DNA from: an uncultured Saprospiraceae bacterium
GTDB lineage: Bacteria; Bacteroidota; Bacteroidia; Chitinophagales; Saprospiraceae
Assembly (NCBI GenBank): GCA_937967615.1
Contig: CALCMJ010000149.1
Coordinates: 1 to 23,386 of the forward strand
Direction: 5' to 3'
Length of the DNA stretch: 23,386 bases
Part shown: piece after piece, positions 19,841-20,046 of the stretch
Numbering within the stretch: position 1 is the first letter of the stretch
Layout of the letters: every line of letters starts with the position of its first letter
Position numbers and translations under genes: made by a program
The notes under the pieces: model-generated
Told to the model about the DNA's origin: nothing
The model's database searches: none
Seen by the model: only the letters and a program-made list of their open reading frames with translations

Positions 19841-20046
19841 GTGTCGCTCCTACGGAGCTTGTATTATTTTACGATTATTCATGTTATAGATATTGCACTC
19901 CTAGGGAGTGCTAATTATCTTCCGCTCATCCGGAGTGCAATGATATTATGTCCGTAATCGACATTGTTCGTTACCATTGCTCCAGAGGAGCAAGATCCTT
20001 ATGGATCACAATTACAATACGAACCTTAGCTCCGTAGGAGCGACAC
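19841..20046. mobile_element. MITE-like / structured repeat element bounded by perfect 18-bp terminal inverted repeats (GTGTCGCTCCTACGGAGC at 19841-19858 and GCTCCGTAGGAGCGACAC at 20029-20046).
   Basis: The roughly 200-bp GC-elevated intergenic segment carries nested internal palindromes (GCACTCC-TAG-GGAGTGC at 19895-19911; GGAGTGCAA pairing with TTGCACTCC; TGCTCC-AGA-GGAGCA at 19978-19992). No coding capacity. Confidence 0.5.

Follow-up and report, generated by a model that had tools for sequence, protein, structure and literature searches.

The stretch of DNA analyzed here (the window; 23,386 nt) contains, at positions 19841–20046, a noncoding element of 206 nt located between two genes on the plus strand. 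The upstream gene (19449–19820) encodes a 123-residue protein that belongs to no Pfam family, and its stop codon lies 20 nt before the element. The downstream gene (20190–22418) encodes a 742-residue metallophosphoesterase of the purple acid phosphatase type (name from public records), for which the closest homologue is 62 to 66% identical, and its start codon lies 143 nt beyond the end of the element. Protein look-ups gave no exact match for the 123-residue protein or for a 562-residue flanking protein. The original prediction had suggested that the element may supply promoter or terminator activity to its neighbors. Between the element and the phosphatase gene lies TATATTTG (20140–20147, 3′ of the element and 42 nt upstream of the start codon at 20190), which we take to be a TAnnTTTG box of the Bacteroidetes type. 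Because this candidate box is situated between the element and the ATG, a promoter role of the element for the phosphatase gene is, judging from the sequence, unlikely to be needed. A side effect on the upstream gene, through termination or stabilization of its mRNA, is possible, and cruciform formation is another candidate effect. In the window, the element probably rides along passively, flanked by two genes for secreted enzymes.

The 18-nt arm GTGTCGCTCCTACGGAGC at 19841–19858 (plus strand) has its exact reverse complement at 20029–20046, as predicted, and the perfect inverted repeat extends one base further, to 19 nt (19841–19859 and 20028–20046). None of 100 dinucleotide shuffles matched the arm with up to three mismatches allowed, and within the window the arm sequence is present only twice, i.e., as the two arms. 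The internal palindromes, of which at least three had been claimed, were also recovered, namely GCACTCC-TAG-GGAGTGC (19895–19911), GCTCC-AGA-GGAGC (19979–19991), and GATCC-TTAT-GGATC (19994–20007); additionally, ATTGCACTCC (19892–19901) is complementary to GGAGTGCAAT (19932–19941). The described elevation in GC content was overstated, being marginal only (0.405–0.415 compared with 0.35–0.39 in the flanks), and the described lack of ORFs holds for ORFs of at least 60 residues but not for shorter ones, since a 40-residue ORF of no evident significance overlaps the element on the minus strand (19971–20093). As RNA, the entire element is predicted to fold into a single long hairpin (−89.6 kcal/mol; z = −9.6), and the predicted DNA fold has an energy of −47.1 kcal/mol (z = −9.6). 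The 19-bp inverted repeat is the main source of this fold energy. The target-site duplication that had been proposed as a check is absent: the element is bordered by CCTCGG on the left and AAAAGC on the right, and the longer flanks, TTCCTCGG and AAAAGCAA, contain no direct repeat around the element.

When a set with a single genome for each species (596 Gb) was scanned with the 18-mer arm, matches were obtained at 120 or more loci, compared with approximately 17 expected by chance. The loci listed come from at least six phyla, including Bacteroidota, Acidobacteriota, Verrucomicrobiota, Ignavibacteriota/Kapabacteria, Sumerlaeota, and Cloacimonadota, and single genomes carry several dispersed loci (among the matches listed, five loci in OY762428 and seven contigs of JALVCY01). 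The distribution across genomes is patchy rather than universal. In viral contigs, the arm sequence gave one match in 2.9 million, and this near-absence makes a phage origin unlikely.

Flank listings and position logos revealed that the arm is part of a longer unit with a 27-nt consensus, CTACAAAGGTGTC-GCTCC-TAC-GGAGC-T, comprising a 13-nt extension (CTACAAAGGTGTC), a GC-rich 5-bp stem with a 3-nt loop, and a terminal T. The arms are thus two copies of a hairpin unit common to many phyla, and not the termini of one particular element, as in the MITE reading of the original prediction. In a position logo of 465 oriented units, CTACAAAGGTGTC precedes the stem, and conservation is high at individual positions (T at −4 in 95%, C at −1 in 89%, and T at +1 in 84% of units); 3′ of the hairpin there is a single conserved T and no U-tract. 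The upstream motif TA[CT]AAA[GC][AG]T is followed by a perfect 5-bp hairpin at a fixed offset in 108 of 204 cases, compared with 69 of 5000 random positions. The stem occurs as GCTCC, GTCCC, GCCCC, GCGCC, GCACC, and GTTCC. A covariance model (R1), trained solely on units from genomes other than that of the window, gave 271 matches in 100 sampled loci. In the model-fitted alignment of 129 distinct R1 matches, which favors the structure, 98.8% of the cells are paired; in the same alignment, two-sided stem changes number 73, compared with 11.8 in shuffles (none of 500 reaching 73). The unit hairpin is under selection and is preserved by compensatory changes.

The units are found singly, as direct pairs, as divergent pairs, and as 26-nt tandem arrays in many phyla. 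For neighboring units in the same orientation, the spacing peaks at 45 to 54 nt, and we refer to two units approximately 50 nt apart as a module, with an inner (I) and an outer (O) unit. Units are mostly extragenic, with 30% of them lying within long ORFs although long ORFs make up 84% of the bases. Units also create spurious ORF extensions, such as “GVAPTEL.” A full-text search with the 13-mer hairpin sequence found no paper, and no description of the 27-nt unit was found in the literature on RAYT, REPIN, or REPtron sequences in Bacteroidetes.

When applied to the window, R1 placed four units within the element at ranks 1, 2, 3, and 5, in the predicted order and orientation. The top match, at 19840–19860 (22.5 bits; E = 1.5e−5), is the forward inner unit, I> (19841–19859, plus strand; GTGTC-GCTCC-TAC-GGAGC-T, with the hairpin at 19846–19858), which forms the left arm of the 19-nt repeat and is identical in sequence to the unit adjoining the stop codon in the transposase genes described later. 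The right arm is the reverse inner unit, <I (20027–20046, minus strand; A-GCTCC-GTA-GGAGC-GACAC, with the hairpin at 20029–20041), scoring 22.0 bits (E = 2.1e−5) and identical to the unit found 13 to 32 nt upstream of the ATG of these genes. The forward outer unit, O> (19884–19911, plus strand), is degenerate and reads TTATAGATATT-GCACTCC-TAG-GGAGTGC, with a 7-bp stem at 19895–19911; with the full-length model it scores 8.3 bits (E = 0.5), which is weak when taken alone, and its hairpin starts 51 nt past that of I>, so that position and orientation agree with the 45- to 54-nt mode of the family. It also satisfies a terminator-like pattern. The reverse outer unit, <O (19977–20004, minus strand), reads CCATAAGGATCTT-GCTCC-TCT-GGAGC-AA on the minus strand, with the hairpin at 19979–19991, and ranks third in the window (12.3 bits with the full-length model; E = 0.029); the 5′ extension of <O shares bases with the small palindrome GATCCTTATGGATC (19994–20007), and the <O hairpin starts 50 nt from that of <I, which is the family mode. 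A reading of 19972–19991 as a forward outer unit was dropped, because the reverse reading, chosen by R1, agrees more closely with both consensus and spacing. The central spacer between the modules (19912–19976), which contains GGAGTGCAAT (the complement of 19892–19901), gave no R1 matches and has no recognizable unit. Since both outer units are degenerate (8.3 and 12.3 bits, compared with the 25 to 45 bits that are typical), the window element may be an inactive relic.

A search for a cognate transposase had been proposed together with the MITE reading, and an associated protein family indeed exists, although it is a Y1/HUH enzyme of the IS200 superfamily and not a DDE enzyme. Clustering of the ORFs over the 120 listed arm loci yielded a single dominant family, corresponding to Pfam Y1_Tnp (E ~1e−24), and this is the sole enriched family besides the ubiquitous ABC ATPases. 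According to tblastn, the Y1 gene is present in 20 of the 120 listed 8-kb loci; in the window itself, tblastn with the Y1 proteins found no such gene. The proteins (n = 18; about 153 residues) share the motifs DH[TILVAC]H, WQEGFGAF, and Y[IV]xNQxxHH, and their nearest solved structures are the IS200/IS605 TnpAs 2f4f, 2xm3, and 2a6m. They score 65 to 67 bits against the NCBIfam model transpos_IS200 (cutoff 55), and do not belong to the RAYT clade (NF047646; 32–35 bits, cutoff 80). The clade comprises at least 8,000 clusters at 90% identity, most of them represented by one contig. Many contigs carrying Y1 are just 0.6 to 2 kb long, as the units break metagenome assemblies.

In 12 of the 14 loci displayed, the order is <O <I Y1 I> O>; in the remaining two (L058 and L106), clear units are found only downstream of Y1. 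Complete genomes that carry the gene include those of Melioribacter roseus P3M-2 (CP003557, near 1.4956 Mb), Epilithonimonas sp. UC225_85 (NZ_CP170547), and Kapabacteria OY762428. Sampling based on the protein only (Melioribacter roseus, Flagellimonas marinaquae, a Marinimicrobia MAG, and a 5.2-Mb genome in which the gene occurs twice) showed R1 matches of 25 to 43 bits at identical offsets around all five gene copies from the four sources: <O at −82 to −55, <I at −32 to −13, I> on the stop codon, and O> at +46 to +73. Judged by motifs only, the protein corresponds to “subclass 1.2” in the classification of Quentin et al. (2018). The published signature of this subclass consists of an HuH motif DH[IV]H, WQ, and Y---Q--HH in a protein of about 148 residues that has a tail of about 30 residues at its C terminus, and the subclass was described as low copy (1.7 per genome) and as lacking both REPs and terminal hairpins (PMC6006769). 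Neither CTACAAA nor TTTGTAG is present as a string in Table S1 of that paper. Because the subclass was published without REPs, yet modules flank the genes analyzed here, the link between repeat and gene appears to be undescribed so far.

The window element has the order I> O> <O <I, i.e., two modules face to face with no gene between them. The same order was found elsewhere in six exact instances and five variants, and it forms the core of a composite of approximately 330 nt that occurs in at least seven copies in the Saprospiraceae MAG JALVCY01. This convergent arrangement differs from the product expected from a simple internal deletion in <O<I-gene-I>O>, which leaves the true mobile unit ambiguous. 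A scan of JGI metagenomes for both perfect arms 155 to 185 nt apart gave no matches, and neither did a metagenome scan in which the arm was extended by 10 nt of spacer sequence specific to the window. Hence, neither the window nor the JGI metagenomes yielded a second copy of the 206-nt composite, and mobility of the window composite is putative. One Logan contig terminates within the window element.

The element had been read as MITE-like, which holds insofar as it is a noncoding, nonautonomous repeat element. Its short length, its intergenic position, and its perfect 19-bp inverted termini approximately 170 nt apart are indeed shared with TIR-type MITEs. A classical MITE would derive from a DDE-type insertion sequence by internal deletion, would have 18- to 19-bp terminal inverted repeats, and would be moved by cut-and-paste with target-site duplication. 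Here, the flanks carry no direct repeat, the “TIR” is a generic unit found in single, direct, divergent, and tandem arrangements in many phyla, the only gene family enriched nearby is Y1/HUH with no DDE partner, and the metagenome scans gave no other copy of the composite. The MITE reading is therefore largely refuted, and we consider it scarcely credible. The other possibility raised originally, a structured ncRNA or cis-regulatory RNA (a 3′-UTR stabilizer, a terminator of the upstream operon, or a phosphatase leader) with hairpins kept for their function in RNA, is in line with the highly stable predicted fold (z = −9.6), with the hairpin covariation, and with the terminator-like pattern formed by the two forward units and T-rich tracts (three sites compared with 0.4 expected). 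Moreover, Escherichia coli REPs influence mRNA stability (PMC3733652). The fold energy, however, is owed mainly to the 19-bp inverted repeat, and a single conserved T follows the hairpin where a terminator would have a U-tract. Rfam gave no match to the element at the gathering score, the other matches in the window being tRNAs outside the element, and the only match at E ≤10, CRISPR-DR57, is at chance level (17.5 bits; gathering score 39). Units are present in either orientation, and modules surround a gene as mirror images, which points to symmetry at the level of DNA, as suits recognition on either strand, rather than to one transcript. On these grounds, an RNA function has become improbable. 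ARAGORN detected neither a tRNA nor a tmRNA in the element. A CRISPR array was rejected on account of the two forward and two reverse units and of the absence of cas domains in the 15 window ORFs scanned.

Two further explanations were considered. The units could be the ends of a still autonomous IS200-like insertion sequence, the window element then being debris in which two half-ends were juxtaposed by independent insertion, deletion, or recombination, and not a unit replicating in its own right like a REPIN. This would fit the NCBIfam scores, which exceed the IS200 cutoff but fall far short of the RAYT cutoff, as well as the closest solved structures, all of them IS200/IS605 TnpAs. It would also fit the 280- to 340-nt repeats in one locus (L019), which each contain <O<I, about 100 nt left over from the 5′ end of Y1, and I>O>, and which resemble deletion derivatives of a whole element. 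One genome carries two identical Y1 copies 3.16 kb apart, the protein is 75 to 88% identical between phyla, which suggests horizontal spread, and the Y1 genes are located in variable type I restriction-modification (R-M) islands. Against such a view, most clusters are represented by one contig and the clade is low copy (1.7 per genome; PMC6006769), the units far outnumber the genes (271 R1 matches and approximately 20 genes in the sampled loci), IS200/IS605 ends lack inverted repeats, and the convergent four-hairpin core is multicopy in JALVCY01. We regard the debris scenario as rather unlikely. Alternatively, the units could be binding sites for host proteins or nucleoid-structuring sites, kept for the benefit of the cell, with the adjacency to Y1 being secondary. 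The extreme conservation of the unit between phyla speaks for such a role, as does the binding of IHF and gyrase by E. coli REP/BIME elements (PMC3333891). The distribution of the units is patchy and nonuniversal, however, and bracketing at fixed offsets of five out of five protein-sampled Y1 copies is difficult to account for unless unit and gene are directly related, so that host sites are very improbable.

We favor, with a probability of about 0.7, the interpretation that the element is a gene-less, REPIN/BIME-like doublet of a repeat family linked to Y1/HUH transposases (IS200 superfamily; approximately 153 residues). The missing target-site duplication agrees with this interpretation, since Y1-type elements are expected to lack one. 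As the Y1 gene is absent from the window, a cognate Y1 in the source organism is assumed. By analogy with the TnpAs of IS608 and ISDra2 and with E. coli TnpA-REP, from which we infer catalysis and mobility of the repeat family, such an enzyme, encoded elsewhere in the genome, would bind the unit hairpins in single-stranded DNA, for example in the lagging-strand template. It would cut and rejoin the DNA beside the hairpins, with the conserved 5′ extension serving for site recognition, and units may thereby be copied, deleted, or rearranged without target-site duplications. The putative cut site may be close to the conserved CTAC, 10 to 13 nt 5′ of the stem.

A broader proposal, which we put forward tentatively and at somewhat less than even odds, is that the window element exemplifies a hitherto undescribed, pan-phylum REPtron-type system in which a highly conserved IS200-class Y1 (subclass 1.2) is paired with a near-invariant 27-nt unit in two-hairpin modules, as a second, RAYT-independent origin of REP-like repeats inside class 1. 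This system may be linked to type I R-M islands. REP/RAYT is the classic example of how a single-strand transposase, once domesticated, maintains a population of hairpin repeats, and has so far been tied to class 2 Y1 enzymes and GTAG-tagged REPs, mostly in Proteobacteria. The present data suggest that an IS200-proximal Y1 clade, published as lacking REPs, has a repeat system of its own. A 153-residue protein and a 27-nt putative substrate make a tractable pair for studying DNA recognition by Y1 enzymes and the origin of REPs from insertion sequences.

The closest protein relatives of the Y1 described here, based on NCBIfam and solved structures, are those of IS200/IS605 (IS608 and ISDra2). 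These insertion sequences and their gene-less derivatives (PATEs) share with the present family small subterminal hairpins recognized as single-stranded DNA and, as seen at the window element, the lack of target-site duplication. IS200/IS605 elements, however, end in two distinct hairpins that have the same orientation on one strand, whereas the ends described here are mirror images, with apparently few gene copies and abundant solo units. The REPtrons with “atypical secondary structures” in subclass 2.6 (Bacteroidetes) and in class 3 (Planctomycetes/Acidobacteria) likewise have noncanonical, weakly structured flanking repeats that lack GTAG and have further genomic copies (PMC6006769). Their proteins belong to other clades, with Y...NP or Y....Q motifs and 178 to 179 residues, and their repeat sequences differ, there being no CTACAAA or TTTGTAG in Table S1 (PMC6006769). 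With TnpA-Y1 subclass 1.2 (PMC6006769), the present family shares DHxH, WQ, Y[IV]xNQxxHH, a length of approximately 150 residues, a conserved C-terminal tail of about 30 residues, an apparently low copy number, and presence in Bacteroidetes. It differs from the published description in that inverted two-hairpin modules lie around the genes at fixed offsets and in that the family, with membership assigned from motifs only, extends well past Cyanobacteria and Bacteroidetes.

The comparison with REP–RAYT systems concerns class 2 TnpA-REP of E. coli and Pseudomonas (Quentin et al. 2018; Bertels & Rainey 2011; Ton-Hoang et al. 2012). As in REP/BIME/REPIN–RAYT systems (PMC3116915, PMC3333891), the repeats are short extragenic hairpins that form inverted doublets able to adopt one long hairpin (here with 19-bp perfect arms), a Y1/HUH gene lies within inverted repeats (a “REPtron”), the repeats far outnumber the genes in the sampled loci, and the window element has no target-site duplication. 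The anatomy is nevertheless distinct. The GT[AG]G at the 5′ foot of the REP hairpin is replaced by the 13-nt extension CTACAAAGGTGTC, and GTAG occurs in the unit only on the other strand, as the complement of CTAC 10 to 13 nt away or across the loop. The hairpin is merely 5 bp long with a 3-nt loop, hairpins are paired into modules with a spacing of approximately 50 nt, and the Y1 motif is Y..NQ..HH, compared with Y...NP in RAYTs. Finally, REPs are lineage specific, whereas the unit described here is near-identical between phyla, an unusual conservation that reaches from Bacteroidota to Acidobacteriota and Verrucomicrobiota.

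The element at 19841–20046 had been described in the original prediction as MITE-like, with perfect 18-bp terminal inverted repeats, or else as a highly structured ncRNA. The arms are exact (GTGTCGCTCCTACGGAGC at 19841–19858 and its reverse complement at 20029–20046), and the perfect pairing in fact extends by one base to 19 nt; no match between arms occurred in shuffles of the window with 3 mismatches allowed. The internal palindromes were located at 19895–19911 (GCACTCC-TAG-GGAGTGC), 19979–19991 (GCTCC-AGA-GGAGC), and 19994–20007 (GATCC-TTAT-GGATC), and a single long hairpin is predicted for the element (z of about −9.6 in both RNA and DNA models). 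The claimed elevation in GC is real but slight (0.41 versus 0.35–0.39). No target-site duplication was found at the element, and the ncRNA alternative gained nothing from Rfam, which gave no match to the element at curated thresholds and, at E up to 10, only CRISPR-DR57 at chance level.

The upstream neighbor is a 123-aa ORF without a Pfam family (19449–19820), and downstream lies a gene for a purple-acid-phosphatase-type metallophosphoesterase (20190–22418), the top homologues of which are from Saprospiraceae (62–66% identity). The window spans one complete contig of 23,386 nt. T9SS sorting tails are present on neighboring genes, which places the organism in Bacteroidota. A TAnnTTTG-type sequence at 20140–20147, beyond the element, is a candidate box of the phosphatase gene itself, and a side effect of the element on the upstream gene, as terminator or stabilizer, is possible. 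Elsewhere in the window, a regulator with WYL and WCX domains (5238–6251, reverse strand) and an RtcB RNA ligase gene (6340–7707) are divergently arranged and followed by a tRNA array (8363–9598; Asp, Glu, Gln, Leu-TAG, Leu-TAA, and His) containing an unannotated 170-aa ORF (8987–9499). A seventh tRNA-like Rfam match (9944–10001, 58 nt, 34.5 bits) was not called by ARAGORN. The region 5238–10001 resembles an island of RNA-repair or tRNA genes.

Exact matches to the 18-mer arm were found at more than 120 loci among the matches listed in a scan covering one genome per species, where chance alone would give about 17 in 596 Gb. The loci listed include Chryseobacterium, Epilithonimonas, Saprospiraceae, Chitinophagales, and other Bacteroidota and, beyond this phylum, Acidobacteriota, Verrucomicrobiota, Ignavibacteriota/Kapabacteria, Sumerlaeota, and Cloacimonadota. 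The repeat family is in essence confined to chromosomes: of 2.9 million viral contigs, just one, IMGVR_UViG_3300009008_000005 (L131), has an exact match to the 18-mer. In the listed flanks, the arm proved to be a piece of a longer unit, a second copy of which, preceded by CTACAAA, recurs about 50 nt downstream. From 465 oriented hairpins, a position logo yielded the unit consensus CTACAAAGGTGTC-GCTCC-TAC-GGAGC-T.

A perfect 5-bp hairpin was present at a fixed offset 3′ of the motif TA[CT]AAA[GC][AG]T in 108 of 204 cases, versus 69 of 5000 random positions, with GCTCC, GTCCC, GCCCC, GCGCC, GCACC, and GTTCC as stem variants after the upstream motif. A covariance model of the unit (R1), built from 76 motif-anchored units, all from genomes other than that of the window, yielded 271 hits at E ≤ 0.001 in 100 loci. 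Over 129 distinct R1 hits, pairing cells amounted to 98.8%, and changes on both sides of the stem numbered 73, compared with 11.8 in shuffles (none of 500 shuffles equaled the observed number); this alignment was fitted to R1 and is biased toward structure, a bias of which the motif-anchored test is free. As judged from these sequences, selection acts on the hairpin, beyond sequence alone. The units avoid ORFs, since 30% lie inside long ORFs, though these span 84% of all bases. Spacings between neighboring units of the same orientation show a sharp peak at 45–54 nt, by which we defined two-hairpin modules consisting of an inner (I) and an outer (O) unit; a further class at 25–29 nt corresponds to head-to-tail arrays.

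The window element contains four units, which are the R1 hits ranked 1, 2, 3, and 5 in the window: a forward inner unit at 19840–19860 (22.5 bits), a weak forward outer unit at 19884–19911 (8.3 bits), a reverse outer unit at 19977–20004 (12.3 bits, E = 0.029), and a reverse inner unit at 20027–20046 (22.0 bits). With > and < denoting forward and reverse units, these positions and strands give the order I> O> <O <I, that is, two modules face to face with no gene between them, and the hairpin spacings of 51 and 50 nt are at the family mode. Because both outer units are degenerate, the element may be a relic. The same convergent order was found elsewhere in six exact instances and five variants. 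In the Saprospiraceae MAG JALVCY01, it is the core of a roughly 330-nt composite with at least seven copies (L033, L035, L041, L055, L113, L117, and L119). This composite carries extra outer inverted repeats (TTGAGTCTGCTCCGAAAAGTC ... GACTTTTCGGAGCAAACTCA) and may represent a REP-module doublet that was picked up by, or developed into, a larger MITE-like element. Two metagenome scans for the specific composite seen in the window were both negative.

In an all-against-all clustering of the ORFs of 120 loci, a single family predominated, with a length of about 150 aa and members in 18 loci (20 by tblastn), matching Pfam Y1_Tnp (E of about 1e-24) and NCBIfam transpos_IS200 (65–67 bits, cutoff 55). 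Its scores against REP_Tyr_transpos (32–35 bits) are far under the cutoff of 80, which places it outside the RAYT clade. The cognate transposase to be sought under the original prediction is represented in other genomes by a Y1 gene family bracketed by units. No Y1 gene occurs anywhere in the window. In 12 of 14 printed loci found through the repeat, bracketing is two-sided and uniform: a reverse outer unit (GCNCC-GTAG-GNGC-GAAATNTTTGTAG), a spacer of about 22 nt, a reverse inner unit (AGCTCCGTAGGAGCGACAC), 5–15 nt to the ATG, the gene with its stop codon, next a forward inner unit (GGTGTCGCTCCTACGGAGCT), a spacer of about 25–30 nt, and a forward outer unit. The other two (L058 and L106) have clear units downstream only. 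In both, the gene adjoins a head-to-tail array of the bare 25–26-nt unit (GCTCCTACGGAGC-TATAAAGGTGTC repeated), which in L040 was seen alone. In the Saprospiraceae MAG JALSTN01 (L019, 1–2600), five repeats of 275–341 nt follow the Y1 gene in tandem, each containing <O<I, some 100 nt remaining from the 5′ end of Y1, and I>O>; they resemble derivatives of the gene-bearing unit with internal deletions.

As those loci had been chosen through the repeat, an independent sample was taken via the protein alone (five copies of the gene in four sources, with one each in Melioribacter roseus, Flagellimonas marinaquae, and a Marinimicrobia MAG and two in a 5.2-Mb genome). R1 placed units at identical offsets in all five, namely <O at −82 to −55 and <I at −32 to −13 relative to the ATG, I> over the stop codon, and O> at +46 to +73, with scores of 25–43 bits. 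The two identical copies (L129/L130, contig ctg16657c, 5.24 Mb) lie 3.16 kb apart, both with modules, with an IS1595-family transposase gene in the interval; DDE and RhuM genes are close by. In L122 (M. roseus CP003557), L124/L125 (F. marinaquae), L126–L128 (Marinimicrobia), and L015, the gene and its modules lie within type I restriction–modification operons, between hsdM/hsdS and hsdR, and adjoin KilA-N/Bro-N/ORF6N, RhuM, or NYN genes. This setting, seen in three of four protein-sampled sources and in 1 of 20 repeat-derived Y1 loci, may reflect insertion into variable defense islands or a functional link. The family comprises at least 7,999 clusters at 90% identity, and members from Chlorobi, Marinimicrobia, Ignavibacteriota, and Flavobacteriaceae are 75–88% identical. 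Many members are on contigs as short as 0.6–2 kb. A Logan contig (L121, run ERR9287624) bearing the identical phosphatase gene has its position 1 at window 20003, within the element and directly past the GATCCTTATGGATC palindrome; this start, together with Y1 clusters known solely from 0.6–2 kb contigs, fits the idea that the repeats break assemblies.

The most likely mechanism, by analogy with IS608/ISDra2 TnpA and Escherichia coli TnpA-REP, is single-strand processing by the Y1 enzyme. The source organism is assumed to carry further unit copies and, elsewhere in its genome, the cognate gene, whose product would bind the small hairpins in single-stranded DNA, with site recognition probably via the conserved 13-nt 5′ extension of the unit. 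Presumed catalysis, cutting and rejoining beside the hairpins, would spread or rearrange units without duplications. The unit that replicates may be either the convergent doublet or the divergent arrangement of the gene loci. The nearest solved structures to the Y1 family are IS200/IS605 TnpAs, and the system might be a still-autonomous insertion sequence of which the window element is debris. We give this some weight but consider it unlikely; the ends here are mirror images and hence not those of an ordinary IS200/IS605 element.

No published account of the hairpin sequence was found in open-access full text, and the open-access RAYT/REPIN/REPtron literature on these phyla gave no description of this repeat. 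Some Y1 members are labeled “REP element-mobilizing transposase RayT” in IMG, which we take to be a generic, orthologous-group-derived label and not evidence of an associated REP. Judged by motifs (DHxH, WQ, and Y[IV]xNQxxHH), a length of 153 aa, and a C-terminal tail, the protein matches subclass 1.2 in the classification of Quentin et al. 2018 (PMC6006769), published as having no REPs; CTACAAA and TTTGTAG strings are absent from their supplementary table of manually found REPs. The present unit differs from canonical REP/RAYT systems in having no GT[AG]G foot, in its Y1 protein outside the RAYT clade, and in being nearly invariant across phyla, whereas REPs are lineage-specific. On sequence grounds, the anatomy is nonetheless that of a REP/REPIN-RAYT “REPtron,” with extragenic hairpin repeats, doublets in inverted orientation, and inverted repeats on either side of a Y1/HUH gene.
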